Shown here in pieces: positions 1-33,268 of a stretch of DNA of 64,000 nucleotides. The position numbers were made by a program, and so were the translations under genes. The notes beneath the pieces are model-generated. The model had not been told where the DNA came from and made no database searches. It saw only the letters and a program-made list of their open reading frames with translations. The stretch covers positions 2,463,823 through 2,527,822 of the forward strand of contig NC_019771.1 of assembly GCF_000317695.1 (NCBI RefSeq). Reading direction: 5' to 3'. Positions within the stretch are counted from its first letter, which is position 1. Every line of letters starts with the position of its first letter. The DNA comes from Anabaena cylindrica PCC 7122. GTDB taxonomy: Bacteria > Cyanobacteriota > Cyanobacteriia > Cyanobacteriales > Nostocaceae.

Positions 1-107
1 CAAAACTAAATTGCAAGCTACCATTAAATTACAGGTAAATTACTTTAAGTTGCATTTGTTAGAATGTAACTAACTTTCACATACCACTACTAGATAAAGC
101 AGAGTAC

Positions 108-704
108 ATGGCGACTAAAGACTGGTTGAACAATCACGCTAAAGTCACTGCCTACCTAGACTTTAGCCTCTACGCTAGTTTAGAAAAGTGGATGCAAAAA
201 CACAAAATCAAGAAGGCATCTCAAGCTCTGACGATTATACTTGAACATTACCTTGAGGGGAACATTCCCATTGAAGTTATGCCTGAGAACCTCGAACAAG
301 AGGTGAAGCGGCTGAAGGTCAAAACTACCGAAATAGATAGCCTAGAGGCAACTGTCGCTGAACAACAAAGGGAGTTTAATGATGAAATTAACTCACTCAG
401 AACAGAAATTGATGAACTACGACAAGCTCTTATTAATGCAGGGTTATCATCTCTGAAAGAGAAGGTAGAAGATATTCCTAGAGGGCAAATTAAGTTTTCG
501 TATTCTGATGAGGATGTAAAACAGGGGCTTACCAAAACTGACCTGTGTGAGAGAATAGATATTAACGGCAGCACAATTAATCAATGGGCAACGATGCTCA
601 ATCTTGACTCTGATGAATATTTGTTTGAGTTGACGGGCTGGAAGAAACCGCCTAATACCCGTCGATACTTCCCGGTTAAGGATAATGAGTCTAACCCAAA
701 ATAA
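108..704 (+). CDS. hypothetical coiled-coil protein
   Basis: 198-aa ORF with heptad-like charged segments (EQEVKRLKVKTTEIDSLEATVAEQQREFNDEINSLRTEIDELRQ). No recognisable catalytic motif. A competing antisense ORF at 581-817 overlaps it. Confidence 0.35.
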   Translation: MATKDWLNNHAKVTAYLDFSLYASLEKWMQKHKIKKASQALTIILEHYLEGNIPIEVMPENLEQEVKRLKVKTTEIDSLEATVAEQQREFNDEINSLRTEIDELRQALINAGLSSLKEKVEDIPRGQIKFSYSDEDVKQGLTKTDLCERIDINGSTINQWATMLNLDSDEYLFELTGWKKPPNTRRYFPVKDNESNPK

Positions 705-965
705 TCAGCAATATAATCTACTACTTTGTTAAATTTTTCAATTGTTTCGAGAGCATCTTTGAATTTCTTAATTGCTTTTTGGAGATTAACACCAGGTTCT
801 TTTATATCCGTATTCAACTGATGCTTATTTGCCCCCGGTCTCCCTTAGAAAGTGGTAAATGAACGACTGGCAGTAGTTGAGTGATGATACAATCTGCGAT
901 CGCCTATTCTACGTCCTCATGGTAAGATTTCTTCGGGCAAAATTATTCACCCTTAAATTTACCAG

Positions 966-1406
966 ATGTCTATTCCTGAAATTACGCAGACTTTATTAGA
1001 AGCAAAGAAAGAGAAAGGTTTAAGCTTTGCTGATTTAGAAAAAATTCTGGGACTGGATGAAGTATACATTGCGGCTATATTCTACCGTCAAGCTAGTGCA
1101 TCACCCGAAGAAGCTAAGTTATTAGTAGAAGCATTGGATTTAGCCCCCATCTATATCCAAGAGTTGACCAAATATCCAGTTAAGGGATTGGGACCTGTTG
1201 TCCCAACAGACCCACTAATTTACCGCTTCTATGAAATTATGCAGGTCTATGGCTTCCCGATTAAGGAAGTAATTCAAGAAAAGTTTGGTGATGGGATTAT
1301 GAGTGCAATTGACTTTACCTTAGATGTGGAAAAAGAGGTAGACCCCAAAGGCGATCGCGTTAAAATTACCATGTCTGGTAAATTCCTACCGTACAAAAAG
1401 TGGTAG
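966..1406 (+). CDS. cynS: cyanate hydratase (cyanase)
   Basis: 146 aa. The N-terminus [49 protein letters not shown] and C-terminal region [33 protein letters not shown] are characteristic of CynS, and the length matches. Confidence 0.85.
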
Positions 1407-1639
1407 TCTTTGACTCATCAAATTAATTTTTGTTGGGAACAATACACCGAACCCGTAGGGCTAATTAGGGCTAAATATAGCGCGAATGCTCCTAATACAC
1501 AACTTTCACGTCGCACGCCCCTCATGACAACCGCGTTTACTAACCCCAAATAGCCTTTTGAAAGTTGTCTTGTGAAGACAAAGTATGCTCTGATAGGGTA
1601 ATCTCTGCATTGGGGTGAAAAAATTGTGCTGAGGTAATT

Positions 1640-1942
1640 ATGATTACAGGAAAATTAGAAGTAACAATCAAAATCAATGAACTACCAGAAGCCACGACCA
1701 TAGAAAACGGCTGGCAACAGTTCGAGGTTGATTGTGATGGTCGGATTATTAGCGTCACAGTCAAGCCGAAAGTTTGGAAAAAACTAACTGATGCCCAAGC
1801 TAACTATCCTCAATGGGTAGGAGCGATTGCTGGCAAGTTGGGAGAGGCCACCGATAACGGTTTTGTGCTGTTAGAGCCTAATATCCAGACTTTTGAGAAA
1901 AAGGCAAAAACACCAGCCGCAGATGCAGCTACTGCTAGTTGA
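1640..1942 (+). CDS. hypothetical protein
   Basis: 100-aa ORF with a clean frame and an Ala-rich C-terminus. No recognised motif. Confidence 0.4.
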   Translation: MITGKLEVTIKINELPEATTIENGWQQFEVDCDGRIISVTVKPKVWKKLTDAQANYPQWVGAIAGKLGEATDNGFVLLEPNIQTFEKKAKTPAADAATAS

Positions 1943-2667
1943 GCAAAAGTTCTACCACAGATGGATAATCACAGCTTACACAAGGGTTTCACCAGTCGGC
2001 TTGATGACCCCGTGAACCACTATCAACAGATGTAGCAACATTAAAAGTTAAAAATCAAACAAATGTTAGATTGCATCGGTGCAAAACTTCTGTATGATCT
2101 GGCTAATACGTAAATGAAGCGAGTAAGGGAGGTGTAGATATAGGTGAAGAGATAACAACTATAAAAACGGCAACAGGACAAAACGATACTAACTAGTACA
2201 CGCTTTGTCCCGTCATAGAATTGCCGATTTTAACTTTGCTCAATAGTATCCGAGCGGGGTTAATTTCAAAGAAACCAAAGAAGTGGTGTTAAGTTTGGCC
2301 GCTTGCCCCACCAATTGGCTTTCTTGAGATTGTTTCGTGTTGCTTTCTATTATATAGATTGCTGCGACATTTCAAGCCTTCCGACTGGAATATTTTGGAA
2401 AAAAATGAATCATACTCAGGACTTACCCACCAAGATGACTAATTGAAACAGGATATAAAGTGTGTAAAGTTGCGTGTAGTAAGAGTTTTAGCAATTTTAC
2501 CTCTCCCAAACCCAAATTTTTAGACAACCTGTGTAAGTCCCAAGATTCTTGATTCCTCATCCAAATAACCAGCATTAAGAAACGCAGCAAACCTCATAAA
2601 TATGTAAGAGCAGCACGAATAGCCCCCTCTGATACTCCTAAAAACCAAGTATCAAGAGGAATCTACC

Positions 2668-5600
2668 GTGCTAACAGAACAACAACTTTTCATCTCCACA
2701 GAAATAGATCCGGCTCATCGAGACGAATGGTTAGCGAGTGCCATTGACCCAGAAATCATTGACCTCAACTTGCGATCTCTCTGGGGAACCACACCCTACG
2801 AATATCTGCTCTACAGCATCAACATCTCTCGTCGCAACGACGGACGCTTACGGGATGGGGATTTAAGAAAATATCGCCACATCGAAAACGGAGGTTGGTG
2901 GTGTAACGGCGTTGACCCCTTAAACAACTACGAGCAAATGCTATGGGGGTGCTTAAAACCCAACCAGCCCCGACGTGACAAACAAAAAATTCACAAAATA
3001 ATTAAATACGAACATCCCTACAAAGAAGCAACTAGGGCATTCTTCCTGTACGTCCCATATAAAAATTGGGCAAAAATCTCAGACCGCTGCGGTATAGCCA
3101 TTACAGAAGAAGATAGACTTGACCCCCGTGGCTTCTGGTATTGGGTTTGGCGGCATAACGTCCCGTTAATAATCTGTGAAGGTGTTAAGAAAGCAGCTGC
3201 GTTATTAACTGCTGGTTATGCAGCGATCGCTATTCCTGGAGTCAACAACGGCTACCGCACCTCCAAAGATGAATATGGTAACACCATTGGTAAGCCCTAC
3301 CTCATCCCGGAAATTCAGCACTTTGCCACAAGAGGCAGACAAGTAAATATTTGTTTCGACAATGACAGTAATGCAGAAACTCGCAAACGGGTAAGAACCG
3401 CTATTAACCGCATGGGCAGCTTACTCATTGGTGCAGGCTGTGAAGTTAAGGTGATAGATTTACCCCCAGGAGCAGAAAAAGGAGTTGACGACTTCATCGC
3501 TGCCAAGGGTCAAGACGCATTTCACGCTTTATATAACACCTCCGAAGTGCTAGAGATGTGGCAGATACGGCTGTCTACTCTATTAACTTACCCTCCTGCA
3601 ATCTCTCTCAACCAAAGATTTCTGGGAGAAATTCTCATCCCCGCCAGTGAAAAACTCATCATCCTCAAAGCCCCCAAAGGCACAGGTAAAACCGAATCGC
3701 TCACCCTGGAAGTCGCCAAGGCACACGAAAGTGGGCAGAGGGTTTTGGTCATAACCCACCGCATTCAATTAGGTGAAGCCCTGTGCAATCGTTTTGGCGT
3801 TAACTACGTCACAGAAATTCACGATTCAGAAACAGGGGACTTACTTGGTTACGGAGTATGTATTGACTCCTTACATGGCAATAGCCAAGCCAAATTTAAT
3901 CCCAACGACTGGTCTAATGATATCGTGATCATCGACGAAGCCGACCAGGTATTCTGGCATTTATTAAACTCCGACACTGAAGTAGCTAAACGTCGTGTCT
4001 CTGTCCTTGACAATCTGAAAAAATTAGTTCAAAACGTCCTCAGCAGTCCCCAAGGAAAAATCTACCTCTCCTCTGCGGATATCAGTGATGTGGATGTCAA
4101 TTATATTCTCTCCTTAGCTGGAGGAATTCATATTAAGCCCTTTGTGATTGTCAATGACTACCAGCTTGAATCTGGCAACTGCTATAACTACCAAGGTAAA
4201 GACCCCAGAAATTTAATTGCGGCACTAGATATGGCTATTGCTCAAGGTGGGCATCATTTGTTGTGCTGTTCTGCCCAGAAAATGACATCCAAATGGGGGA
4301 CACAGGCTTTAGAAAAACGCTACCAGAGCAAATTCCCGCACTTACGCATTTTACGAATTGATGGTGAAACAGTGAAAGACCCCAATCACCCTGCTTATGG
4401 GTGTATTGCTCACCTCAACGAAATTCTCACGGAATATGATTTGGTTATCACTTCTCCTAGCCTAGAAACTGGGGTATCTATTGATATTAAGTCCCATTTT
4501 TCAGCAGTTTGGGGGATTTTCCAGGGTGTACAGCCGGTGAATTCGGTGCGGCAGATGCTGGCACGACTGCGAGAAACGGTTGACCGCCATATCTGGGTGA
4601 GAGAATGGGGTCTAGGAGTAATTGGTAATGGCTCTACCTCGATGGGCGTACTGTTAGCCAGTCAACACGCGATGACGCGGGCGAATATTGCTCTGTTATC
4701 GGCAGCAGATAATACTGATTACAGCTATATAGATGAAAATTTCCAGCCTGAATCTCTCCAAAGTTGGGCAAAGCGGGCTTGTGTGATTAATGCCCAAATG
4801 AAGTGTTACCGTAATGCTGTGCTACAGGGTTTGGCAGATGATGGCTATACAATTCTTGATGCTTCTGAGTCATTATCATTGGCAGCAGGTCATAAACAAG
4901 AGTTAGCGGCTGATGGCTATACAATTCTTGATGCTTCTGAGTTGAATTTGGTAGACAATGAGCAAGTGTTGAACTCGGTTGTAAATGAGCAGGTGTTGAA
5001 CTCGGTTGTGAATGAGCAGATAGTGAATGAAGTAAAAACTGCTGTTAATGAATTACAAACAATTGAGTGTGAAGAAGTGGCTTCATCTCAGACACTTACC
5101 AAAGCGGAATTCGATAAATTACAAGAGAAACGAGCTAAGACTAAGAGTGAACGTCAACAGGAACGTAAAGCTGAATTAGCGCAGCGTTATGGGGTGGATG
5201 TGACACCGGAACTAGTGAGGAAGGATGATGCTGGCTGGTATCCACAGTTGCGGCTGCATTATTATTTAAGCCTGGGGCGTGAGTTTTTGGTAGTCCGTGA
5301 TACTAAGAGGGCTAAAGCCCAGGCTGAGAAGGGTAATAATGCGGTTTGGAAGCCTGATTTTAATCGGGGACAGTTGCTTCCTGCGGTGATGTTATTGGAG
5401 GAATTGAATATTTCCCAGTTGTTTAATACTGATGTGGAGTTTCGCAGTTCTGATGTGGAGTTGCAGGAAATGCGATCGCTGGCTGTGGAACATAAGCAGG
5501 TGATTAAGAATTACCTGGGGGTTTCTATCTCTGAGAAAGATAGTGCGATCGCTATCTGCCAGAAGTTCCTGAAAAAGTTGGGGATGAAGCTGTCTTATAT

Positions 5601-5775
5601 TGGCAGGTTTGGAGCAAGAGGACACCGGGAACGGGTTTACAAGTTTGTCCCACCCCAAGATGAACGGGAAATTATTTTCTCAGGGTGGCTACAACGAGAT
5701 GAAGCCATGAGTGCGTCCACCACGGAAAATGTGGTGGATGTTAATTCTGTGTCCACCCCTAATAATAAGAGATAA
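2668..5775 (+). CDS. plasmid/ICE-type replication protein (TOPRIM/DUF3854-like primase domain + P-loop NTPase), CyRepA-like
   Basis: 1035 aa. Toprim-like block VPLIICEGVKKAAALLTAGYAAIAIPGV...NICFDNDSNAETRK...EKGVDDFIAAKG. Walker A LKAPKGTGKTESL and Walker B IVIIDEADQV. The C-terminus carries near-identical internal repeats (DGYTILDASE... twice; NEQVLNSVVNEQVLNSVVNEQIVNE). It is followed by iteron-like repeats. Confidence 0.65.
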   Translation: MLTEQQLFISTEIDPAHRDEWLASAIDPEIIDLNLRSLWGTTPYEYLLYSINISRRNDGRLRDGDLRKYRHIENGGWWCNGVDPLNNYEQMLWGCLKPNQPRRDKQKIHKIIKYEHPYKEATRAFFLYVPYKNWAKISDRCGIAITEEDRLDPRGFWYWVWRHNVPLIICEGVKKAAALLTAGYAAIAIPGVNNGYRTSKDEYGNTIGKPYLIPEIQHFATRGRQVNICFDNDSNAETRKRVRTAINRMGSLLIGAGCEVKVIDLPPGAEKGVDDFIAAKGQDAFHALYNTSEVLEMWQIRLSTLLTYPPAISLNQRFLGEILIPASEKLIILKAPKGTGKTESLTLEVAKAHESGQRVLVITHRIQLGEALCNRFGVNYVTEIHDSETGDLLGYGVCIDSLHGNSQAKFNPNDWSNDIVIIDEADQVFWHLLNSDTEVAKRRVSVLDNLKKLVQNVLSSPQGKIYLSSADISDVDVNYILSLAGGIHIKPFVIVNDYQLESGNCYNYQGKDPRNLIAALDMAIAQGGHHLLCCSAQKMTSKWGTQALEKRYQSKFPHLRILRIDGETVKDPNHPAYGCIAHLNEILTEYDLVITSPSLETGVSIDIKSHFSAVWGIFQGVQPVNSVRQMLARLRETVDRHIWVREWGLGVIGNGSTSMGVLLASQHAMTRANIALLSAADNTDYSYIDENFQPESLQSWAKRACVINAQMKCYRNAVLQGLADDGYTILDASESLSLAAGHKQELAADGYTILDASELNLVDNEQVLNSVVNEQVLNSVVNEQIVNEVKTAVNELQTIECEEVASSQTLTKAEFDKLQEKRAKTKSERQQERKAELAQRYGVDVTPELVRKDDAGWYPQLRLHYYLSLGREFLVVRDTKRAKAQAEKGNNAVWKPDFNRGQLLPAVMLLEELNISQLFNTDVEFRSSDVELQEMRSLAVEHKQVIKNYLGVSISEKDSAIAICQKFLKKLGMKLSYIGRFGARGHRERVYKFVPPQDEREIIFSGWLQRDEAMSASTTENVVDVNSVSTPNNKR

Positions 5776-5788
5776 ATACATGAGTTAT

Positions 5789-5870
5789 GGACACCAGGAC
5801 ACAATAACCTTGGACACAATAACCTTGGACACATGAAACCTGAACTCATTAACCCTGGACACCAGGACAC
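5789..5870. repeat. iteron-like direct repeats (6 x GGACAC with AATAACCTT spacers)
   Basis: ggacaccaggacacaataaccttggacacaataaccttggacaca...ccctggacaccaggacacaaac lies immediately 3' of the replication-protein gene. Confidence 0.5.
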
Positions 5871-6485
5871 AAACTAACTAACCAAACGTTTCCCAAATTT
5901 TAAATAGGTGAAGACTATCACCTCATTTTGTAGTTCAACTTTGTTTGACGCTCCACGTATTTCGCTATGTTCCACATGGAGTCTCCTTAGCAAAAATCAG
6001 GACTTACGCAAAATCTTTCTCAAACGCCCATTTTTCGTGACCTCTGCGCCTCGAGGGGGATGCCTGACGGCACGCGGGAGCAAACGTTATTTTTGTACCT
6101 TGATGTGAGTCTTAACAATAAACGTGTAATTTTATACTTCTAAAATTTGTAGTAGACAAATAAATACTACAAATGTATTATTAAAATAATCTTGATTACA
6201 AATACTACAAAAATTCAATGAGCAGCAGATTCTCTTCAACAATTAGTAGCGTGGTGCATTGCCGACCCTATCGGGGTTCAGGCAGAGCAGTTTCGTTGCG
6301 AGAAACAGCTAGAGTCTATGCACTGTTGGCGTTTGAGGGAATGTATCTGTTAATCGGCGATAAATCTATAAGCCTGGGGATTTTTGGCGCGTTAGCCTCT
6401 TGGCTGAATCCAGATCAACTAATTCAAAGCGGGGGGTGCAAATGTTTCATAGCACCGAAATAGGGCAAAAAGTATCAACAAACAG

Positions 6486-6524
6486 ACCCCCGCTTTTGTT
6501 CACCAGAGGCGGGGGTTATTTTTT
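6486..6524 (+). terminator. Rho-independent terminator
   Basis: A CCCCCGC...GCGGGGG stem followed by TTATTTTTT. Confidence 0.5.
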
Positions 6525-6540
6525 AGGAGTGAATTAACTA

Positions 6541-7077
6541 ATGGAAGCTCAACCACCTTTTCAGCAAACGCACATACTACAAAATTCAGTTGTGGTGTTC
6601 TCTAAAAACTACCTACCACTATCACGCATCAACATTAAGCGTGCAATCGTGCTGTTAGTTACAGGTCAAGCAGAATCATTGAACTTTGATACTACAAAGC
6701 AATGGGAAATTCGTTCTCCCAGTGTTGTACTACAAGTACCTGAACACATCCGCTTGACTGTTGGTAATCCTGAACGGCATTGGAAAATACCACCCGTAAA
6801 CCGTCGAGAGGTTTTGAAGCGAGACAACCACACCTGTCAATACTGTGGTAGTACAAAACGTTTAACCCTTGATCATGTAATACCTCGTTCCAAAGGTGGA
6901 CAGCATACATGGGACAACGTTGTAACGGCGTGTGACAAGTGCAATTCAATAAAAAGCGATCGCCTACTTTATGAAGCAGGAATGGTACTTAAAACCAAAC
7001 CCAAAGCCCCAATTCACCCAGCAGTTGCATTTGCCGAACAGTTTTGGAACGCACAACGCCTAACGGAGAAAGAGTAA
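6541..7077 (+). CDS. HNH endonuclease
   Basis: HNH motif DNHTCQYCGSTKRLTLDHVIPRSKGGQHTWDNVVTACDKCNSIKSDR. Confidence 0.8.
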   Translation: MEAQPPFQQTHILQNSVVVFSKNYLPLSRINIKRAIVLLVTGQAESLNFDTTKQWEIRSPSVVLQVPEHIRLTVGNPERHWKIPPVNRREVLKRDNHTCQYCGSTKRLTLDHVIPRSKGGQHTWDNVVTACDKCNSIKSDRLLYEAGMVLKTKPKAPIHPAVAFAEQFWNAQRLTEKE

Positions 7078-7283
7078 TTCATTCCCTTAAACCCATTCAG
7101 AGAGGGCAATACAGCGATTCAATCACACCGCCCTCTCATTTCTGAAAAAAAATTTGTAGTATGCCCTTGACAACTCTGTAGTATGTAATGTAGTATAAAT
7201 GTAGTAAAGCAAAAAGAGCCTCCACCAAAGGCAAAGTGCTAACACCTCTGAACCATGAAAACTAAATAATTGCCACCCAACGT

Positions 7284-7358
7284 GGGGGTGTAACTCAGTT
7301 GGTTAAGAGTGCCTGTCTGTCGAACAGGAAGCCGCGAGTTCGAGTCTCGTCATCCCCG
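7284..7358 (+). tRNA. tRNA-Asp(GUC)
   Basis: Acceptor GGGGGTG/CATCCCC. Anticodon stem-loop CCTGT-CTGTCGA-ACAGG. T-arm GCGAG-TTCGAGT-CTCGT. Confidence 0.7.
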
Positions 7359-7361
7359 TGT

Positions 7362-7435
7362 AGCCTTGTGGACGAATAGATAAGTCGCTTTGATTCTCAG
7401 TCAAAGAGAAGCGGGTGCAACTCCCGTCAAGGCTT
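7362..7435 (+). tRNA. tRNA-Glu(CUC)-like
   Basis: Acceptor AGCCTTG/CAAGGCT. Anticodon loop TTCTCAG. The T-loop is TGCAACT, which is non-canonical. Confidence 0.45.
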
Positions 7436-7443
7436 GCAAATGT

Positions 7444-7519
7444 GTCCGAGTAGCCAAGTGGTAAGGGCGTTGGTCTGCAAAACTAATCATCGTGGGTTCA
7501 AATCCCACCTCGGACTCCA
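7444..7519 (+). tRNA. tRNA-Cys(GCA), CCA encoded
   Basis: Acceptor GTCCGAG/CTCGGAC followed by T and CCA. Anticodon loop CTGCAAA. T-arm GTGGG-TTCAAAT-CCCAC. Confidence 0.65.
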
Positions 7520-7525
7520 AACATT

Positions 7526-7623
7526 GCAGCGTCACCTAACGGTAAGGTACTCGGCTCATAACCGGGAGTATGTGGGTATCTCCTTCGGAGACGCTACGCG
7601 AACAACTCCCACCGCTGCGACCA
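7526..7623 (+). tRNA. aberrant tRNA-like (anticodon CAU) with ~24-nt insertion in T-loop
   Basis: Acceptor GCAGCG.../...CGCTGC followed by G-A-CCA. Anticodon stem-loop CTCGG-CTCATAA-CCGGG. The T-stem GTGGG/CCCAC encloses TATCTCCTTCGGAGACGCTACGCGAACAACT. Confidence 0.35.
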
Positions 7624-7626
7624 AAT

Positions 7627-7697
7627 GCACAGATGGTGTAACGGAAGCATAAGGGTCTCCAAAACCTTTGGTCATGGTTCAAATCCTTGTCTGTGCG
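7627..7697 (+). tRNA. tRNA-Trp(CCA)
   Basis: Acceptor GCACAGA/TCTGTGC. Anticodon stem-loop AGGGT-CTCCAAA-ACCTT. T-arm CATGG-TTCAAAT-CCTTG. Confidence 0.6.
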
Positions 7698-7702
7698 TTG
7701 AT

Positions 7703-7779
7703 GGTGCAGAAGCGAAGTGGCCGAGCGGCACGTCTTTCAAGCGTGTAATTAGCGGGTTCAAGTCCCGTCTGCACTACCA
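7703..7779 (+). tRNA. tRNA-Glu(UUC)-like, CCA encoded
   Basis: Acceptor GGTGCAG/CTGCACT followed by A and CCA. Anticodon stem-loop CACGT-CTTTCAA-GCGTG. T-arm GCGGG-TTCAAGT-CCCGT. Confidence 0.5.
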
Positions 7780-7786
7780 AATTTAT

Positions 7787-7868
7787 GGGTCGGCTCGCCT
7801 ATTGGTGTAGGTAACGGTCTGTAAAACCGCCGCGTTCAGTGTTGCTGGTTCAATTCCAGCCCGACCCA
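7787..7868 (+). tRNA. tRNA-Tyr(GUA)-like (long variable arm)
   Basis: Acceptor GGGTCGG/CCGACCC. Anticodon loop CTGTAAA. T-arm GCTGG-TTCAATT-CCAGC. Confidence 0.5.
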
Positions 7869-7872
7869 CTAT

Positions 7873-7960
7873 GGAGAGATTGCCATTGGCAGGGCAAGCT
7901 GTTTGCTAAACAGTCGTGAAATTCAACATTTCACTGTGGGTTCGACTCCCTCTCTCTCCG
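7873..7960 (+). tRNA. tRNA-Ser(GCU) (class II)
   Basis: Acceptor GGAGAGA/TCTCTCC. Anticodon stem-loop GCTGT-TTGCTAA-ACAGT. Long variable arm CGTGAAATTCAACATTTCACTG. T-loop TTCGACT. Confidence 0.6.
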
Positions 7961-7966
7961 CCTTAT

Positions 7967-8040
7967 CCCCTGGTAGCTCAGTTGGTAGTAGCGCCTGTTT
8001 GAAGAACAGGAGGTCATCCGTTCAATCCGGATCTGGGGGA
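7967..8040 (+). tRNA. tRNA-Phe(GAA)
   Basis: D-arm TAGCTCAGTTGGTAGTAGC. Anticodon stem-loop CCTGT-TTGAAGA-ACAGG. T-arm ATCCG-TTCAATC-CGGAT. Confidence 0.6.
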
Positions 8041-8049
8041 CTGGCACAT

Positions 8050-8124
<75 letters not shown>

Positions 8125-8264
8125 TTTATTGGGAAGTAGGCAAAGTCACATTGCCCTGAACGATAGGCTTGCAGGTTCGACCCCTGCTTCGGCATCTAAT
8201 TGTCTTTAGGCATCGAACTGGCAAACATAGTTTTTTTTATGTCACCATAAAAGCTAAAAAAACT

Positions 8265-9041
8265 ATGAGATATCGAAGTGTTCTGTCAAATAAAACCAAA
8301 GTAGAGGAAGCTGTGAAGCGTTGTTCTTCAGTCAGAGAATGCCTACATTTTTTGGGGCTACGTTCGGCTGGTGGCAACTACAAACAGTTTTACTGCTGGT
8401 GTGAGAAGCACGGTATTATTCCACCTAAAGGAAAAAATATTAATGGACTGAATAACGCCTCTAAACAAGCTCAAATTCCGTTAGAAAAAATTTTAATTTT
8501 AGGCTCTTCTTACAACAGAAATAGTTTGAAATCTAGGTTAATTCAAGAATCATTATTAGAGGAAAGATGCTATGAATGTGGGATATTGTCTAAATGGAAT
8601 GAAAAACCTCTTTGTTTGCAATTAGACCATATTAATGGCATAGCTAATGATAATCGAATAGAAAATCTACGTCTTTTATGTCCTAACTGCCACAGTCAAA
8701 CGCTAACTTTTGCAGGTAAACGAAAACCTTACTCTCGGATTGTCTTTTATTCTTGTTCCAACTGTTATGCTTCAATAACTAAATCTTCTAAGCTAGGGCT
8801 TTGTAAAAGATGTGCATCTTTAAGGTCAAACTTAAAAAGAAGGAAAGTCGAACGTCCTTCTAAAGAAGAATTGCACGAGTTGCTGTGGTCGAAGCCAACA
8901 AGTTTAGTAGCTAAAGAATTAGGAGTAAGCGATAAGGCAATAGAAAAATGGTGTAAATCTTATGGCATTCCAAAACCACCAAGAGGATATTGGAATAAAC
9001 AAAATCAATTACAAGGTTTGATAGTAAATCAAACCTTGTAA
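8265..9041 (+). CDS. HNH endonuclease
   Basis: HNH motif CYECGILSKWNEKPLCLQLDHINGIANDNRIENLRLLCPNCHSQT. The ORF-track start at 8169 would read through a tRNA-like remnant. The start was moved to the first Met after it, MRYRSV. Confidence 0.75.
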   Translation: MRYRSVLSNKTKVEEAVKRCSSVRECLHFLGLRSAGGNYKQFYCWCEKHGIIPPKGKNINGLNNASKQAQIPLEKILILGSSYNRNSLKSRLIQESLLEERCYECGILSKWNEKPLCLQLDHINGIANDNRIENLRLLCPNCHSQTLTFAGKRKPYSRIVFYSCSNCYASITKSSKLGLCKRCASLRSNLKRRKVERPSKEELHELLWSKPTSLVAKELGVSDKAIEKWCKSYGIPKPPRGYWNKQNQLQGLIVNQTL

Positions 9042-9048
9042 CGCTGAT

Positions 9049-9122
9049 TGAGAAGTCGTCTAATAGGTATGGCACCGCTCTTTGAAAGCGGAAAAATGCA
9101 GGTTCAAGCCCTGCCTTCTCAG
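9049..9122 (+). tRNA. tRNA-Gln(UUG)
   Basis: Acceptor TGAGAAG/CTTCTCA with 7 of 7 pairs. Anticodon stem-loop CCGCT-CTTTGAA-AGCGG. T-arm GCAGG-TTCAAGC-CCTGC. It starts 8 nt after the HNH stop. Confidence 0.55.
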
Positions 9123-9167
9123 TTATGTTCTCTGAAGTTTGTAATAACTTAAAGAACAATTAATTTT

Positions 9168-9266
9168 GCTCCTGTAGCCCAACTGGAAGAGGCGGCTGTC
9201 TCAAAAACAGTCTGTGTACGGGTACTGCTCCGCAGAAGCAAGCTACAACTCCCGTCAGGAGTACCA
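9168..9266 (+). tRNA. aberrant tRNA-like (anticodon CAA) with insertion in T-loop, CCA encoded
   Basis: Acceptor GCTCCTG/CAGGAGT followed by A and CCA. Anticodon stem-loop GCTGT-CTCAAAA-ACAGT. The T-stem ACGGG/CCCGT encloses a ~30-nt loop ending CAACT. Confidence 0.35.
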
Positions 9267-9270
9267 AAAT

Positions 9271-9347
9271 CGGGATGTAATTCAGTGGTCTAGAAGCCTT
9301 GTTTTGGGGACAAGGAGTCGTAGGTTCAAATCCTACCATCCCGACCA
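9271..9347 (+). tRNA. tRNA-Pro(UGG), CCA encoded
   Basis: Acceptor CGGGATG/CATCCCG followed by A and CCA. Anticodon stem-loop CTTGT-TTTGGGG-ACAAG. T-arm GTAGG-TTCAAAT-CCTAC. Confidence 0.7.
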
Positions 9348-9350
9348 TTT

Positions 9351-9424
9351 GCCCTTGTGACGAAATTGGCAAACGTGCTGGTCTTAGAAACCAGATTTTG
9401 TGGGTTCAACTCCCACCAAGGGTA
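9351..9424 (+). tRNA. tRNA-like, anticodon UAG (Leu codon) in class I body
   Basis: Acceptor GCCCTTG/CAAGGGT. Anticodon stem-loop CTGGT-CTTAGAA-ACCAG. T-arm GTGGG-TTCAACT-CCCAC. The variable arm is short. Confidence 0.45.
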
Positions 9425-9444
9425 CTGGGTATTTACCCAACTAT

Positions 9445-9522
9445 GCTCTCGTGGCGAAATTGGTAAACGCTTCCGTTTGAGGGACGGAATTTTTGCTCTT
9501 TCAAATCCTGTCGGGAGTACCA
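9445..9522 (+). tRNA. aberrant tRNA-like (anticodon GAG) with degenerate T-arm, CCA encoded
   Basis: Acceptor GCTCTCG/CGGGAGT followed by A and CCA. Anticodon stem-loop TCCGT-TTGAGGG-ACGGA. No canonical T-stem could be drawn. Confidence 0.3.
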
Positions 9523-9527
9523 ACTTT

Positions 9528-9602
9528 GGGCGTTTGGCAGAACGGTTATGCGCCTGACTTTTAATCAGGTTAAAACAGGTTCAACTCCTGTAGCGCCCAC
9601 CA
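9528..9602 (+). tRNA. tRNA-Lys(UUU), CCA encoded
   Basis: Acceptor GGGCGTT/AGCGCCC followed by A and CCA. Anticodon stem-loop CCTGA-CTTTTAA-TCAGG. T-arm ACAGG-TTCAACT-CCTGT. Confidence 0.65.
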
Positions 9603-9603
9603 A

Positions 9604-9677
9604 GCCCCTGTGGCGCAATTGGCAGACGTAGCCCGCTTAAACCGGGTTTGTTGCAGGTTCGACTCCTGTCAGGGGTA
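9604..9677 (+). tRNA. tRNA-like, anticodon UAA (Leu codon) in class I body
   Basis: Acceptor GCCCCTG/CAGGGGT. Anticodon stem-loop CCCG-CTTAAAC-CGGG. T-arm GCAGG-TTCGACT-CCTGT. Confidence 0.45.
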
Positions 9678-9751
9678 TGCGGGGATAGAGCATTCTTTGG
9701 CTCGGCAGTTTCATAAGCTGCAAACGGTGAGTGCAACTCTCACCCCCGCGT
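9678..9751 (+). tRNA. tRNA-like, anticodon CAU (Met/Ile2)
   Basis: Acceptor TGCGGGG/CCCCGCG. Anticodon stem-loop GCAGT-TTCATAA-GCTGC. T-arm GTGAG-TGCAACT-CTCAC. It directly abuts the preceding tRNA. Confidence 0.4.
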
Positions 9752-9783
9752 CCATATACAGACTGTCCTCGCTGTCTGCTTTT

Positions 9784-9861
9784 GCTGGTGTAGCTCAATG
9801 TGGCAGAGCGATCGCCGATGTTTGCGATCGGTTGCAGGTTCAACTCCTGTCACCAGCCCCA
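9784..9861 (+). tRNA. tRNA-like with 8-nt anticodon loop, CCA encoded
   Basis: Acceptor GCTGGTG/CACCAGC with 7 of 7 pairs, followed by C and CCA. D-arm TAGCTCAATGTGGCAGAGC. T-arm GCAGG-TTCAACT-CCTGT. The anticodon region GATCGC-CGATGTTT-GCGATC is non-canonical. It ends 6 nt before the transposon end. Confidence 0.4.
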
Positions 9862-9867
9862 GATACG

Positions 9868-10036
9868 TGTAGCGACCTGCAATACTAATCGGTCAAACCT
9901 GCAATCAAGGGATTTTCAAACCAGGATTAAATGCAACTATAAATACACTTCAGCCAGAATTAATTGCAACTGAACCAGGATTAAATGCAACCAACCTGCA
10001 ATCATCCGTTTCAACCAGGATTATTTGCAACTGACC
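9868..10036. repeat. transposon left end (IR-L) with subterminal repeats at 9919-9938, 9951-9972, 9973-9992, 10013-10033 (plus an extra copy at 10113-10133)
   Basis: The reverse complement of 13490-13662 matches this stretch over ~165 bp. Confidence 0.75.
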
Positions 10037-10280
10037 GAAAGTCCTATTAAATCGTTGTTGAGCAGTTTACTCAAAAAACGCTCCAACTTATCAACAAAAG
10101 TATTTGAACTTCAGCCAGGATTAATTGCAACTGAGAGTAAAAGAAACGACCGTTTTTTTTACTCCCATTATTACCATCAAGCAGAACCAGAATCAAATTT
10201 AGTAAAGAAACTCGGTAATTAAATCAAAGGCAACATATACTGTGAGGTAACGAGTTTATTTACTTGTTGGGGTTCCAAGT

Positions 10281-10850
10281 ATGTTGATAGGCTATGCCCG
10301 AATTTCAACAGATGACCAAAATCTGAACCTGCAAATGGATGCTTTACAGCTTGCTGGTTGCGAGAAAATTTACTCCGACCGCACAAGCGGTGCAAAAGCA
10401 GAACGACCTGGACTTTCCTTAGCATTGGAAGTAGCACGGACTGGTGATGTTCTGGTGGTATGGCGGCTAGACCGCTTAGGAAGATCGCTCAAAGATTTGA
10501 TTGAAATGATGGAAACCTTAGATAAGCGAGGAATTGGGCTTTCTAGCTTGCAAGAATCCATCACCACCACGAATAACAGTGGTAGATTAATTTTCCATTT
10601 GTTTGGTGCATTGGCTGAATTTGAGCGTAACCTCATCCGTGAACGCACTACGGCTGGACTTGTAGCGGCACGAGGGCGTGGTCATAGAGGAGGTAGACCA
10701 AAAGCCCTAGATCCAACTAAACGTCAATTAGCAGTAAGACTTTATACCGAAAAACAATACACAATTATTGAAATATGTAATTTGATGGGAATTTCCAAAC
10801 CAACGCTCTACAACTATATTGCAGAGATAAAAACTGAACATGGTACATAA
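10281..10850 (+). CDS. tniR: serine recombinase (resolvase/invertase family)
   Basis: MLIGYARISTDDQNLNLQMDAL...GDVLVVWRLDRLGRSL, followed by a C-terminal HTH (ISKPTLYNYI). It has the typical length of ~190 aa. Confidence 0.85.
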   Translation: MLIGYARISTDDQNLNLQMDALQLAGCEKIYSDRTSGAKAERPGLSLALEVARTGDVLVVWRLDRLGRSLKDLIEMMETLDKRGIGLSSLQESITTTNNSGRLIFHLFGALAEFERNLIRERTTAGLVAARGRGHRGGRPKALDPTKRQLAVRLYTEKQYTIIEICNLMGISKPTLYNYIAEIKTEHGT

Positions 10851-12501
10851 GCAAATCTCTGTAGAGGCACTTATTAATTTACGCCACCGCCTCGACGGAT
10901 TGCCTAGCCGTTGTCAAGAGCGGCGAATTCTCATCGAAGAGACAGCAGCATTATATGGAGTGTCAACAGATACACTATATCGCGCCTTGCGTAACTCATC
11001 ACGCCCCAAATCCATAAATCGCTCAGATAGCGGGACCCCCAGAAAACTTTCACTCGCGGAAATGGAACGCTACTGCGAGGTCATCGCGGCCATGAAAATC
11101 CGCACTAGTAACAAGAAAGGGCGACATATCTCCACAGTCCGGGCAATTGAACTGTTGGAGGAGTTTGGGATGGAAACACCCGATGGTTTTGTCCAACCAG
11201 ATAAAGGTGCGTTAACTAGAAGCACTGTCAATTATTACTTAAAAACATGGGGGTATGATCAAGAACGCATGACCAGGCAACCGCCTGCGGTGCGTTTTCA
11301 AGCAGAGTACAGCAACGAATGTTGGCATTTCGACCTCAGCCCATCTGATTTAAAACACGTAAAACAGCCATCATGGGTAGAACCGGGTAGAGGTAATCCA
11401 TTACTGATGCTTTATAGTATTGTTGATGACCGTAGTGGTTTATGTTATCAAGAATACCACTGTGTTTATGGGGAGGATGTAGAAGCTGCATTACGTTTCT
11501 TATTTAATGCGATGACAGCGAAAACAACCGACGGCTTTGCCTTTCAGGGGATTCCAGAGATGATTTATACGGATAACGGACCCATTGCGAAAAGCCACGT
11601 ATTCCAAAATGTGATGGATTGCCTGAGAATCAATCTTGTTACCCATATGCCTGCGGGTAAAGATGGTCGTCGGGTAACAGCCCGCTCCAAAGGCAAAGTA
11701 GAAAGACCTTCTCGGACAGTCAAAGAAGCCCATGAGACTCTGTATCACTTTCATGAACCGGAAAGCGACATTGAAGCTAACTTATGGTTGCGCCAATATT
11801 TGTTGCATTACAACGACAAACCACACCGCATAGAGCCGCATTCCCGGCTGGAAGATTGGTTGCGAAATATACCTAAGTCTGGCTTGCGTTCGATGTGTAG
11901 TTGGGAGCGATTCTGTACCTTTGCCCGTGAACCACAGCGCAGAAAAGTGGGAACGGATGCTAGGGTATCGGTAGAGGGTGTGGCTTATGAGGTAGAACCG
12001 GACTTAGCAGGAGAAACTGTCGTGCCATGGTGGGGCTTGTTTGACAACGAACTGTACGTAGAAAAAGAAGACCGTCGCTACGGACCATTTTACCCAGTTG
12101 ACGGTCCTATCCCCTTACACCGCTACCGTAAATTTAAGAAAACTAAAACCGAAGAACGGGCAGATAAAATTGCCAATTTAGCTAAAAAGTTGGGTTTGCC
12201 ACGAACTGCCTTGGACAAAAACACGGATTTACAATTTCTGGTGGATAAGTATAAGGAATTGGAGCCAACTGTTACACCTTTTAACGACCCTGACCCATAC
12301 CAAGAATTTACTTATCCGACTGTATTGTTTGCTAAGAGGGCGATTTCTGAACAACTGGCCAGACCTTTGGCTAAATTGTCTCCCGAACAGTTGGCATTCA
12401 TTGATGCCCTGCTGGCTGAGACTCTGAATAAAAAAGCGATTATTGAACGAGTGCGGCAATATTTCCGCTCAAATCAAGGAGAGGAACAAAATGCTCACTG
12501 A
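10840..12501 (+). CDS. tniA: DDE transposase, TniA/TnsB (Mu-type) family
   Basis: 553 aa. The catalytic core has WHFDLS...(D)...YTDNGPIAKSH...(E) spacing typical of Mu/TnsB/TniA. Its start overlaps the resolvase stop and its stop overlaps the tniB start. Confidence 0.7.
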   Translation: MVHKQISVEALINLRHRLDGLPSRCQERRILIEETAALYGVSTDTLYRALRNSSRPKSINRSDSGTPRKLSLAEMERYCEVIAAMKIRTSNKKGRHISTVRAIELLEEFGMETPDGFVQPDKGALTRSTVNYYLKTWGYDQERMTRQPPAVRFQAEYSNECWHFDLSPSDLKHVKQPSWVEPGRGNPLLMLYSIVDDRSGLCYQEYHCVYGEDVEAALRFLFNAMTAKTTDGFAFQGIPEMIYTDNGPIAKSHVFQNVMDCLRINLVTHMPAGKDGRRVTARSKGKVERPSRTVKEAHETLYHFHEPESDIEANLWLRQYLLHYNDKPHRIEPHSRLEDWLRNIPKSGLRSMCSWERFCTFAREPQRRKVGTDARVSVEGVAYEVEPDLAGETVVPWWGLFDNELYVEKEDRRYGPFYPVDGPIPLHRYRKFKKTKTEERADKIANLAKKLGLPRTALDKNTDLQFLVDKYKELEPTVTPFNDPDPYQEFTYPTVLFAKRAISEQLARPLAKLSPEQLAFIDALLAETLNKKAIIERVRQYFRSNQGEEQNAH

Positions 12502-13461
12502 AGTCATGGAACACTTTCGATTGCTCAGAGAGTTCCGCAAGGCTGGCTACTACGAAACAGAACACCAAAAACAATTGTTTAAGGATATTAAAGTCGCAAT
12601 CCATTCAGGAAAGCTGGTTGCCATCACGGGAATTATCGGGTGTGGCAAGACGACGACTTTACGACGTTTGTTTGAGGTTTTGGAGAAAGAAGGCAAGATT
12701 TTAGTCTCGAAATCGCTTTCTGTTGATAAAAACCGAGCGACGCTACCAACACTGATTGCTGCCTTATTTTACGATTTAGCAACAGATAAGGAAATTAAAA
12801 TTCCTGCACTTGGGGAAAAACGAGAACGGGAACTGCGTGACTTGATTAGAAAAGGTAAAAAGCCTGTGGCGTTGTTTGTAGATGAGGCTCACGACTTACA
12901 TTACAGTACGCTCACAGGACTCAAACGTTTAATTGAGGTAGTTGAAGACGGTGGTGGTACGCTCTCAGTTGTGTTAGCTGGTCATCCTAAGCTGAAAAAT
13001 GATTTACGCCGTCCAACTATGGAAGAAATTGGCTATCGGGCAACTGTTTTTCTTTGGAGGGTATTGTTGGTAGTCAAAAAGAATATATTGAATGGTTGGT
13101 ATCTAAATGTACTACTGAAGATACTCAAATAAGTGAGATATTGGAGCCGGATGCTATTGAATTACTTGCCATGCGGTTGAGGACACCATTGCAAATTGAG
13201 CAACATTTGACACTAGCTTTCGAGGCTGCATACCTTTTTGGAGAGAAAACTGTTACCACAGCGATTATTGAGTCTATTTTATCTAAGCAAATTGACGATT
13301 TGGAACCCACCTTAACCCGGCATGGCTACGATGTAAGGGGCTTGGCGGAACAGTTCAATGCCAAACCGGCGGAAATTAAATTGCTGTTTCGCGGACAACT
13401 TGATCCAGCCCGCTCTCGTGAATTACACGAGCAAATGCTGGCGGCAGGACTGCCACTTTGA
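12443..13461 (+). pseudogene. tniB: TniB/TnsC-like AAA+ ATPase, frameshifted
   Basis: Walker A ITGIIGCGKTT and Walker B LFVDEAHDL. The reading frame breaks near 13050-13080 at gtttttctttgg and continues in the +1 frame (ORFs 12443-13132 and 13054-13461). Confidence 0.7.
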
Positions 13462-13489
13462 GCGGATTGAAACTGCGATAAAAATGTTA

Positions 13490-13662
13490 GTATTTATAGT
13501 TGCAATTAATCCTGGTTGAAACGGATGATTGCAGGTTGGTTGCATTTAATCCTGGTTCAGTTGCAATTAATTCTGGCTCAACCGTATTTATAGTTGCATT
13601 TAATCCTGGTTTGAAAATCCCTTGATTGCAGGTTTGACTGATTAGTATTGCAGGTCGCTACA
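13490..13662. repeat. transposon right end (IR-R)
   Basis: Reverse complement of 9868-10036. It ends ...GGTCGCTACA. Confidence 0.75.
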
Positions 13663-14821
13663 TATACTCATTAGATTCTGGGGACCATACACCATTGGCA
13701 TCAGCTTCATATCTCATCCATGATTTAGTTTCATCGTTGAAGGCGATCATGTGGCGATAATCTTCAGCGATTTCTTTGGCCATTTGATCCGGTGGTGGAT
13801 TCTTATGCTTCTCTGGTTCGTCGTTTTGAGGTGTTCCTGATTTAAAGGTTTTCTCCAGTCGGGCAATGGCATCAGAGTAAGCCCGGTCAAATGCTCCTGT
13901 TCCTGAATTTACTATTAAGTCATCAATTCCTTTACCTTGTTCAGTTCTCCAGAAAATATCCTCTACATAAGATGGGTTAGCAGCTTTCAATGCTAGGGTC
14001 AAACGTTTCTTACCCTTGGTGACTGATATTTTGGCTTTGTGCGAGTCGTCTCTGTCCATGGCCAGTAGCCAAATTGAGTTTTCTACTGCCAACCGTTCTA
14101 AGTCAGGGGTAAGGCTTGGCTCTAAGTTAATTCCATCTTCATCTTTGGATTTACCCGCACCGCACCGACAACCATAGAGTCCGATGGTAACGTAACCCTG
14201 AGAAAGTGCGGCTAGTGCCTTCTTGCCACCTTCTGTAATGATTCTAGGGATTTTAGCTTCTCTCACCCAGTCCCAAAAACTACCTTCCATCGGCACATTC
14301 ATACCGGATCTAGAAGCAACTTTCTTTCTAATTGGTTCGGGGACAGGTGGCGTGAATGCGCGATCGCCATTTCCCTTTGGGGCTAAATATCTGTAGGGGC
14401 GTTGACGGTCTTCATCCCAAAGGCTAACCATTACCTGCCACAAACTACCATCCTCATTTCTGAGGAATGCAGCATAGATAGGTTCTTTAACTTGGTATCC
14501 GAACCGGGTGAAGTACCATCCCAATTCGTCATGAATGGGAGCTTCAGCGTCCATGCCGTCTGTCCACTCAATGGATTCATGAAACTCAATATCAGCAAAT
14601 AGTTCTGGGTCTATGCCACTACCGTTAATAAATAAATCCTTGGCAAATGATTTAAATTCTTCAAAACTGGTAAATTTGTTCTGTAAATTGACAGTTTTGG
14701 AAGTGTCTATTTGGCTGTCAGTAAGGCTTTTCGCATCTTTTTCTGCTACAATAGTAGTAGATTTTATATTTTTTGTTGTGGGTGAAGTTGTCGCTTCCCC
14801 ATTTTTTTTGCGTGTAGTCAT
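13658..14821 (-). CDS. DUF3854/TOPRIM-like protein (paralog of the N-terminal domain of the 2668-5775 protein), C-terminus supplied by transposon end
   Basis: PRIITEGGKKALAALSQGYVTIGLYGCRCG...GKGIDDLIVNSG parallels PLIICEGVKKAAALLTAGYAAIAIPGV...EKGVDDFIAAKG. The last ~4 codons and the stop codon lie inside IR-R of the transposon. The protein is 387 aa against 1035 aa for the paralog. Confidence 0.55.
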   Translation of the reverse strand: MTTRKKNGEATTSPTTKNIKSTTIVAEKDAKSLTDSQIDTSKTVNLQNKFTSFEEFKSFAKDLFINGSGIDPELFADIEFHESIEWTDGMDAEAPIHDELGWYFTRFGYQVKEPIYAAFLRNEDGSLWQVMVSLWDEDRQRPYRYLAPKGNGDRAFTPPVPEPIRKKVASRSGMNVPMEGSFWDWVREAKIPRIITEGGKKALAALSQGYVTIGLYGCRCGAGKSKDEDGINLEPSLTPDLERLAVENSIWLLAMDRDDSHKAKISVTKGKKRLTLALKAANPSYVEDIFWRTEQGKGIDDLIVNSGTGAFDRAYSDAIARLEKTFKSGTPQNDEPEKHKNPPPDQMAKEIAEDYRHMIAFNDETKSWMRYEADANGVWSPESNEYM

Positions 14822-17755: not shown

Positions 17756-17815
17756 AAAGGCGATCGCATTTTTTTGGGGATGCGATCGCTCTGTGGGTAA
17801 AATTACCCTGTAGCT

Positions 17816-28944: not shown

Positions 28945-29049
28945 TTTGTTTGATTGGATTAGTTTTTTTGTGGAGTTCTTTCATGAGAAATAGGGAATTT
29001 GTCCTGAAGATAACGGTGTGCGGAGGTTTCTCCGCACTAATCCTTAATT

Positions 29050-33190: not shown

Positions 33191-33192
33191 TG

Positions 33193-33266: not shown

Positions 33267-33268
33267 GG

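Follow-up and report, generated by a model that had tools for sequence, protein, structure and literature searches.

A CyRepA1-type replication module and a separate tRNA-array operon head on an apparently integrated plasmid of Anabaena cylindrica PCC 7122

A CyRepA1-type replicon is found on the Synechocystis plasmid pSYSA, whose replication protein Slr7037 is the experimentally characterised member of the family (PMC9978351; PMC10079941). The CyRepA1 family was described in 2023. For the position of the origin, pSYSA is the only characterised replicon of this type. A fragment consisting of ssr7036, a spacer and slr7037, with almost nothing downstream, is sufficient for its replication; priming is proposed to occur in the spacer, and the origin lies upstream of the CyRepA1 gene (PMC9978351). 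Here, we describe a CyRepA1-type replication gene (rep) and its surroundings in a stretch of 64,000 nucleotides (nt) from the chromosome of Anabaena cylindrica PCC 7122 (NC_019771.1, forward strand, positions 2,463,823 to 2,527,822), which we call the window throughout and whose first letter is position 1. Two further described systems meet in this DNA. For A. cylindrica, a 74,986-bp 5' nifD element with a primase P4 gene and a separate 15,190-bp 3' nifD element have been reported (bioRxiv 10.1101/629832; PMC4874684), and the primase P4 gene is interrupted by a 59,225-bp element with 15 transfer RNA (tRNA) genes, par genes and a photosystem gene (bioRxiv 10.1101/629832). In Anabaena PCC 7120, the HNH gene all8564 is conserved upstream of long tRNA arrays (L-arrays) and induced together with the trn operon by ribosome-targeting antibiotics (PMC8421152). 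Consensus and footprints have been published for the TrcR repressor, which binds both the trn-operon and the all8564 promoter at a TGTAGTAT-like site (PMC10272220).

The rep open reading frame (ORF) occupies 2668-5775 on the plus strand, begins with GTG and codes for 1035 amino acids (aa), as judged from the ORF scan together with family and domain matches. Its product matches the NCBIfam model NF042913 (CyRepA1 plasmid replication protein) with 446.4 bits (E=2e-133) over model positions 2-593 of 595, where the curated cutoff is 200 bits. It aligns with Slr7037 end to end at 37% identity (1029 aligned positions, 613 bits). RefSeq holds the exact sequence, already named as CyRepA1 family. The first-pass annotation, made from the letters alone, had proposed a CyRepA-type initiator combining a Toprim-like domain with a Walker A/B NTPase, and both parts are borne out. 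In Pfam searches, the Toprim-like DUF3854 (PF12965) is found at aa 156-284 with E=7e-50, and the P-loop and superfamily 2 (SF2) helicase families AAA_30, ResIII and DEAD match weakly, below threshold. Across 30 aligned homologues, no variation is seen in the Walker A motif GTGKT (G338-T342), the DEAD box (D423-D426) or the acidic Toprim residues E171, D231 and D233. By sequence, the product of 2668-5775 is thus clearly assigned as an ordinary and already annotated member of the CyRepA1 family. By analogy with Slr7037 of pSYSA, it would initiate plasmid replication.

The AlphaFold model adds a predicted C-terminal domain to this picture. Residues 903-1010 are modelled at a predicted local distance difference test score (pLDDT) of 75-89, and the C-terminus is a helical domain that ends in a beta-hairpin and appears winged-helix-like. 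The predicted architecture is therefore DUF3854/Toprim-like, followed by a DEAD-type helicase core of SF2 and, at the C-terminus, a winged-helix-like domain. A sequence search of the PDB with Rep gave no match. The best match of the model to a solved structure is the origin-binding protein UL9 of herpes simplex virus 1 (HSV-1) on OriS, with E=3e-16 over about 900 columns. The modelled fold thus resembles that of an origin-binding helicase that reads short sequence boxes. Within Rep, we also observe internal tandem repeats (4824-5027), namely two copies of DGYTILDASE and three of NEQVLNSVV. In relatives, rep is extended by in-frame insertions of about 170-465 nt where DUF3854 ends (aa ~268-270; window 3469-3478), which yields Rep proteins of 1050-1590 aa.

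The limits of the replication module can be defined by comparison. Four close relatives were recovered, namely Anabaena cylindrica UHCC 0172, Anabaena sp. WFMT, an A. azotica SJ-1 plasmid and Dolichospermum UHCC 0259, and their Rep proteins are 78-94% identical to that of the window. In all four, homology with the window starts between 1490 and 1630 and spans a 100-aa ORF, the rep leader and rep. In the Dolichospermum UHCC 0259 locus (L019) it stops at 5795, at the first GGACAC motif after rep. The 100-aa ORF (1640-1942, +) is the 5' edge of the conserved module by homology with the four related rep loci. Pfam and NCBIfam searches assign it to no family; it shares no similarity with Ssr7036, and only a marginal one (E=0.004) with the ORF upstream of ssr7036. 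Between this ORF and rep lies a conserved leader of 725 nt (1943-2667, +), defined by cross-locus alignment. As noted at first pass, it is free of ORFs of 60 aa or more, and its sole ORF codes for 55 aa from a TTG start on the minus strand. The leader is about 75% identical to the sequence upstream of DUF3854 genes on two complete Dolichospermum UHCC 0315A plasmids. In the resulting alignment of seven leaders, long blocks without any change alternate with indels whose lengths are not divisible by three. This pattern across seven loci is the one expected for functional non-coding DNA.

Since the leader is conserved and the pSYSA origin lies upstream of rep, the leader 1943-2667 is the most likely location of the origin, along with the promoter and the 5' untranslated region (UTR), as far as the analogy with pSYSA carries. 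No DnaA box is found near the module, with no TTWTNCACA from 1334 to 32751. Within the leader, the seven-locus alignment reveals an inverted pair GGACAAA...TTTGTCC at 2176-2213, whose core is like that of the GGACAC(A)A boxes after rep. None of the seven leaders deviates in either arm, and the spacer between the arms varies. The motif by itself is not enriched across the window, and we treat a relationship of this pair to the GGACAC boxes as a lead only. Together, the 100-aa ORF, the 725-nt leader, rep and a short box array would constitute the rep module (1593-5880) of a CyRepA1-type plasmid of about 55 kb. Immediately upstream of the module, the plasmid carries cynS (cyanate lyase, 966-1406) as cargo.

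Directly after the rep stop codon, repeat analysis finds six GGACAC boxes on the plus strand (5788-5872), with TGGACACCAGGACACAA at both ends and 15-nt units between them. The motif starts at 5789, 5797, 5812, 5827, 5857 and 5865, which gives an array of 5789-5870 with spacings of 8, 15, 15, 30 and 8 nt. An additional inverted copy lies at 5749-5754 within the final rep codons. When the window was simulated 200 times with a first-order Markov model, every hexamer stayed at four copies or fewer per 82 nt. The boxes follow the rep stop directly in all four close relatives as well, with five recognisable copies in each of two loci (L016 and L018), three in A. azotica (L017) and two to three in L019. 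The best-kept part of the array is the terminal double box. The first-pass annotation had called these repeats iterons. Taken as at least three direct repeats beside rep, the description holds with six copies in 82 nt, and both the copy number and the position after rep stand; the classical form does not, as the core is 6-7 nt, the units are not of about 17-22 bp and the spacing shows no helical phasing. The GC content at the array is 38%, compared to 34-49% in its neighbours, and no marked AT-rich block adjoins it. Among the relatives at 64-69% identity, L020 and L022 carry other short repeats upstream of rep, and on pUHCC0315b a different array (ATGGA/TTGGA, period 11-12) follows right after the rep stop. 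In the free plasmid described below, no GGACAC cluster is found near the par genes, and the idea of a centromere is left without support.

We conclude that, on the sequence, the GGACAC boxes are most likely candidate accessory Rep-binding sites specific to this sub-lineage and not the origin proper. This ranking is based on the best match of the Rep model, UL9, being an SF2 helicase that reads short boxes. An iteron function of the array would be plausible. Downstream of the array, a consensus scan alone gives a weak terminator-like hairpin (5906-5923, +) that could end the rep transcript. The spacer between the array and the tRNA module (5871-6146) has hardly diverged in three relatives, even with Rep identity down to 78%. 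In the plasmid collection, virtually no relative of 5776-6147 turns up outside the close clade, and the guess that it is a common small repeat element was not borne out. A second, dense array of similar appearance, (G/A)GACAGA, is found in an intergenic region at 17600-17760, with at least 13 copies and an inverted copy at 17606-17614. It belongs to the 5' nifD element, and about 2.8 kb separate it from the point where an interrupted gene for a DUF3854/P4-type primase starts. Its motif is like the GGACAC(A) boxes, and it may represent the origin of this second element.

The stretch after the spacer belongs to a different unit. Beginning at about 6147, the window matches the heads of long tRNA arrays on plasmids of Nostoc, Calothrix, Tolypothrix and Kovacikia at 73-85% identity, pCC7120delta included. 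On at least 16 other plasmids such an array is headed by an HNH gene, and the sequence preceding this gene is 73-81% identical to 6147-6530. The array loci inspected have unrelated genes on their left side (DUF2459, ssl1498-like, rpsU, transposase, sulfotransferase, DinB), none of them a rep gene, and after rep of L019 the homologue of 6147-6530 is absent. Conservation across 13 loci begins abruptly at a promoter at 6147-6217 (+), TAGACA-17-TATTAT, with the TrcR-type operator motifs TGTAGTAG and, twice, ATACTACA; the promoter-like site itself is called at 6153-6181. The AT-richest spot, 6120-6239 with 22.5% GC, coincides with this TrcR-type promoter of the tRNA module. Downstream follows a small ORF (6218-6463, +) of 81 aa with an ATG start, which has 70-73 aa elsewhere and is annotated as a hypothetical protein of 71-73 aa in several records. 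It is intact across the homologues, open in 13 of 13 loci including Kovacikia, with all indels in multiples of three (27, 6, 3, 3, 3). It codes for the motifs ALFAFEG and WLNPDQLIQSGRCKC as well as a hydrophobic stretch. The ratio of nonsynonymous to synonymous divergence (dN/dS) is about 0.55, compared to 0.08 for the adjoining HNH gene, and in 33 of 45 pairs HNH shows the higher synonymous divergence. This combination is better explained by a leader-type ORF or an overlapping RNA signal than by an ordinary protein, and we describe 6218-6463 as a putative leader-type ORF or small protein.

Scan and folding place an intrinsic terminator, a 14-bp G+C-rich hairpin with a T-run, at 6485-6524 (+). 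Of 13 loci, 12 retain it, and 90.7% of cells are paired. Only 16 nt separate its end from the HNH start codon at 6541, and the scan finds no promoter-like site in between, so that HNH transcription must read through the terminator. Folding further suggests a candidate antiterminator strand, AAAGCGGGGG, in the 3' end of the small ORF (6426-6435, +). This segment complements the terminator's 5' arm, and the two pair in six of six folded homologues when the 3' arm is omitted. It is nucleotide-invariant, wobble positions included. The layout of an attenuator is thus present, from leader ORF through terminator to the HNH ATG, and we hypothesise that small ORF and terminator form a ribosome-sensing attenuator. 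The text passages of PMC8421152 and PMC10272220 available to us make no mention of a small ORF and terminator upstream of HNH. We conclude from the sequence that 6147-6530 reads as the TrcR-type regulated head of the HNH and tRNA-array operon, separate from the rep module. It would comprise a small leader-type ORF and then a terminator that HNH transcription has to pass, possibly under control of the ribosome. At first pass, 6225-6524 had been described as a GC-rich, ORF-poor stretch ending in a strong intrinsic terminator, in the layout of an origin plus an antisense or control RNA. Of this description the terminator is confirmed. The GC content is not markedly high, at 43-51%, the conserved 81-aa ORF fills the stretch, and the layout gives way to a coding region on the same strand as rep that is linked to HNH genes and tRNA arrays.

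The operon itself follows the published pattern. The HNH endonuclease gene (6541-7077, +; Pfam HNH and HNH_5) is the orthologue of all8564 on pCC7120delta. DNA identity to the pCC7120delta locus is 83% over 6130-7466, HNH gene included, and the HNH/tRNA-array module is 81-85% identical to published loci. By motif counts, the trn-operon promoter is located at 7155-7208 (+), with tandem TGTAGTAT overlapping a -10 box TAGTAT (7191-7196). The motif occurs nine times in the window against 1.95 expected, with copies at 7155, 7177 and 7189 and inverted copies at 6164 and 6202. This region agrees with the trn promoter as described in PMC10272220. The long tRNA array (7283-9861, +) contains 16 tRNA genes and an embedded HNH-like ORF of 290 aa at 8169-9041. 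Its last gene, 9784-9861, is called with the four-base anticodon atgt ('tRNA-???').

The DNA that carries both units is found on free plasmids in sister strains. The exact Rep protein occurs in three records: the A. cylindrica PCC 7122 chromosome (6,395,836 bp), AP018171.1 (54,068 bp) and CP186040.1 (55,395 bp), the latter labelled as a plasmid of Anabaena sp. PCC 7938. Compared with the small sister-strain records, 1-13662 of the window aligns over 8.9-13.7 kb at 99.97-100% identity, and the right part of the window is the chromosomal nif cluster. The join between plasmid and chromosome at 13662/13663 is the exact end of a transposon of 3,795 bp (9868-13662, +) that carries genes for a resolvase, a 553-aa DDE transposase and an AAA ATPase and has the ends TGTAGCG...CGCTACA with 165-bp inverted repeats. 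The transposon end cuts a gene for a DUF3854 and P4-type primase (Pfam DUF3854), of which the N-terminal 387 codons are present at 13658-14821 on the minus strand. On the sister chromosome CP186034.1 and in another assembly, the gene is intact, codes for 1056 aa and matches at 100% identity as far as the junction, and thus represents the empty site. The intact primase scores 101.6 bits with the NCBIfam model primase_Cterm, just under the cutoff of 108.7. Because identical DNA is present on free plasmid records, the sister strain holds the empty site and the junction falls on a transposon end, it is strongly supported by sequence that the large element is a plasmid of about 55 kb integrated in the chromosome. 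The first-pass annotation had offered an integrated plasmid as one of its readings, and the free records and the uninterrupted target gene speak for it.

The reported sizes suggest how the plasmid arrived. The sum of 55,395, 3,795 and about 5 bp is 59,195 bp, close to the 59,225-bp element. As the sizes fit, the 59-kb element would consist of the plasmid and a second copy of the transposon, which indicates an origin as a transposition cointegrate. The plasmid would then be joined to the chromosome at the end of the 3.8-kb transposon, within the P4-type primase gene and within the 5' nifD element. The flanks of the transposon on the free plasmid show no target-site duplication (ATACG versus ACTAG). 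An insertion sequence (IS) of the ISL3 family at 37872-39321 is 99% identical to a copy on the free plasmid about 430 bp upstream of the equivalent of the window start, in opposite orientation; this pair is a possible substrate for further rearrangement.

As a whole, the explanation that we consider probable is a CyRepA1 rep module with its origin in the leader and accessory boxes after rep, located on an integrated plasmid, with a separate HNH/tRNA head at 6147-6530. Several observations weigh against parts of it. The GGACAC array is absent from pUHCC0315a and pUHCC0315b despite the shared leader; it is also absent after rep in pSYSA, in Nostoc UHCC 0870 and in the relatives at 64-69% identity, and three of its copies, internal boxes, are mutated in A. 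azotica. Given this absence from leader-sharing plasmids and the mutated copies, the array is possibly dispensable or non-functional. The Rep model is only moderate (mean pLDDT 61.7) and its template modelling (TM) scores to UL9 are low, at 0.32-0.40. For the antiterminator, no covariation is found, as both strands are almost invariant, and an internal mismatch is present in 11 of 13 loci. The sizes alone point to a second transposon copy, as the left junction lies beyond the window. In addition, the primase gene is reported to be precisely restored in 67% of heterocyst genomes, which is ascribed to a phage integrase (bioRxiv 10.1101/629832). Resolution of a cointegrate would leave one transposon copy, at odds with such precise restoration.

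The array invites two other readings. It could itself be the vegetative origin, formed by Rep-bound iterons that follow rep directly, an arrangement as in plasmids of the ColE2 or pAMbeta1 type, and the leader would then be promoter and 5' UTR only. In favour of this, the non-random array lies at most about 15 nt from the rep stop in the window and four relatives, a reduced version survives in L019 though the downstream homology is lost, pUHCC0315b has another short-repeat array in the same position, and the second DUF3854 primase gene of the window has a comparable array, of GACAGA, in its vicinity. Yet the array is missing in pUHCC0315a, in the relatives at 64-69% identity and in pSYSA, which replicates with almost nothing downstream of rep; neither an AT-rich unwinding block nor a DnaA box adjoins it, and its copies decay in L017. 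We regard the array as origin as unlikely, though worth keeping in view. The boxes may also be a functionless slippage product in the 3' UTR of rep, or may serve another protein such as a partition or transcription factor. The variation from two to six copies among close relatives, the mutation of internal copies, a 15-nt unit that looks like a simple tandem duplication and the lack of helical phasing would all be in line with this. On the other hand, the terminal TGGACACCAGGACAC pair is retained in four of five loci and the TGGACAC core survives in L019 despite diverged flanks, and the free plasmid lacks the second cluster near its par genes that would suggest another protein. We give this reading only about one chance in four. 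The rep module could also be an inert relic of a plasmid that was trapped in the chromosome and never replicates by itself. Indeed pSYSA integrates stably once Rep function is lost (PMC9978351), and the plasmid considered here is chromosomal. Rep and the surrounding 8.9-13.7 kb are, however, 99.97-100% identical to the free copies of 54-55 kb and show no decay, and excision of the 59-kb element in heterocysts has been reported (bioRxiv 10.1101/629832), which makes an inert relic improbable.

For the stretch after the array, a terminator-ended non-coding control RNA of the replication module at 6225-6524 would have a precedent, as the copy number of pSYSA is RNA-controlled (PMC9978351), and the promoter-like site at 6153-6181 and the strong terminator at 6485-6517 do bracket about 330 nt. 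We nevertheless consider it highly improbable. The stretch travels with HNH genes and tRNA arrays on at least 16 plasmids, with unrelated left neighbours at the loci inspected, it is absent after L019 rep, and it contains an ORF that stays open in every locus with indels in multiples of three only. Control RNAs of the ColE1 RNA I or pSYSA asRNA1 type overlap a primer RNA or the rep mRNA in antisense; the segment 6188-6524 shares its strand with rep and lies 410 nt past the rep stop without overlap. The promoter carries operator motifs of TrcR, a translation-stress regulator, and Rfam searches of the whole window at gathering threshold and of 1500-7300 at E up to 1 return only tRNAs and one chance microRNA match. 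A closer contest is posed by the possibility that 6218-6463 codes for an ordinary small protein, perhaps a membrane protein, with its own terminator, and that HNH is expressed by passive read-through with no attenuation. The conserved ORF with its two motifs and hydrophobic stretch, its listing as a gene by several annotators and the lack of covariation in the antiterminator favour this. The relaxed dN/dS relative to HNH together with the lower synonymous divergence argues against it, as does the terminator-complementary segment, invariant even at wobble positions. The published induction of the orthologue by ribosome-targeting antibiotics (PMC8421152) also fits it poorly. An ordinary small protein thus falls somewhat short of even odds.

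Joining both halves, we tentatively propose, as a combined idea that we hold to be rather doubtful in its entirety, that the 59-kb element excised in heterocysts is a complete and replication-competent CyRepA1 plasmid captured by a transposon, and that small ORF and terminator form a ribosome-sensing attenuator of the HNH/tRNA-array operon. If the first part is true, one replicon with a stress-inducible tRNA array switches between chromosomal and plasmid states during development. If the second part is true, the operon has a direct cis-acting sensor of translation stress besides the TrcR repressor, and leader ORF and terminator would represent a so far unexamined control layer of the tRNA-array operon. 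That a plasmid with a translation-stress tRNA operon can be captured in a nif element excised during development is relevant to the growth and spread of such elements. Beyond that, new cyanobacterial shuttle vectors are built on CyRepA1 replicons, whose origins are poorly mapped. This locus gives directly testable material, with seven aligned leaders with invariant blocks and a lineage-specific box array. What our analysis adds is a comparative definition of the rep module, the relationship between plasmid and chromosome, and the attenuator hypothesis.

Further right in the window, a middle nifD fragment (25842-26333) is followed by the 3' nifD excision element. It spans 26293-41491 with 15,188 bp (reported as 15,190) between the borders, the classical GGATTACTCCG at 26293 and GAACTACTCCG at 41481, which are short direct repeats containing TACTCCG. 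Joining them restores the nifD reading frame. To the right of the element are the 3' end of nifD and then nifK. A recombinase of the XisA family with 434 aa is encoded at 39946-41250 on the minus strand (Pfam XisAC_N and XisAC_2nd). The element also holds two tRNA genes (33191-33341, -), PIN-domain, Uma2 and RusA genes and a gene for an SPFH protein. In the 5' nifD element, an 847-aa protein with collagen triple-helix repeats is encoded at 22119-24662 (-) amid unannotated genes and beside a RusA-like gene, which suggests a prophage-like origin. The copy number in its collagen-repeat region varies between sister strains. Look-ups of the exact NifK protein and of this 847-aa protein gave no match, probably owing to the choice of start codon or to allelic difference.

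Among the closest described systems is the pSYSA replicon. The locus shares the domain order of the CyRepA1 protein with Slr7037, and in both a small ORF and a non-coding spacer precede rep. In contrast to pSYSA, the upstream ORF is unrelated to Ssr7036, the leader has 725 nt where pSYSA has a spacer of 163 nt, an array of GGACAC boxes follows rep, and the replicon is integrated in the chromosome. The Rep protein of the window also contains an additional repeat-containing insert at aa 722-781 that Slr7037 lacks. The predicted fold is similar to that of HSV-1 UL9 (PDB 9hgi, 9hgj) in that an SF2 helicase core is followed by a C-terminal domain, and UL9 reads short boxes around its origin. Unlike Rep, UL9 has no Toprim domain, the sequence identity is 13-14%, and the low TM-scores come from a model of moderate confidence. 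We see no evidence for common descent of the two proteins beyond the SF2 core. A further parallel is the alpha protein of phage P4, a single initiator with primase, helicase and C-terminal origin binding that acts on six or more short repeats at two cis sites. Its iterons are octamers in ori and crr, its helicase belongs to superfamily 3 (SF3), and its primase fold differs from that of CyRepA1. The P4-type protein in the window is encoded by the interrupted gene at 13658-14821 and not by the CyRepA1 gene.

The operon head and array are like the HNH/trn operon of Anabaena PCC 7120 on pCC7120delta in gene order, in the TGTAGTAT motif at the trn -10 box and in the array of 16 tRNA genes. In contrast to pCC7120delta, the module adjoins a CyRepA1 gene here and its small ORF has a 27-nt in-frame insertion. 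The nested layout, the sizes and the gene content agree with the 'primase P4 element' and the nifD elements of Anabaena cylindrica (bioRxiv 10.1101/629832; PMC4874684). In these reports, the 59-kb insert is regarded as an excision element that has a phage integrase, whereas here the same insert appears as the free CyRepA1 plasmid of the sister strains, bounded by a transposon end.

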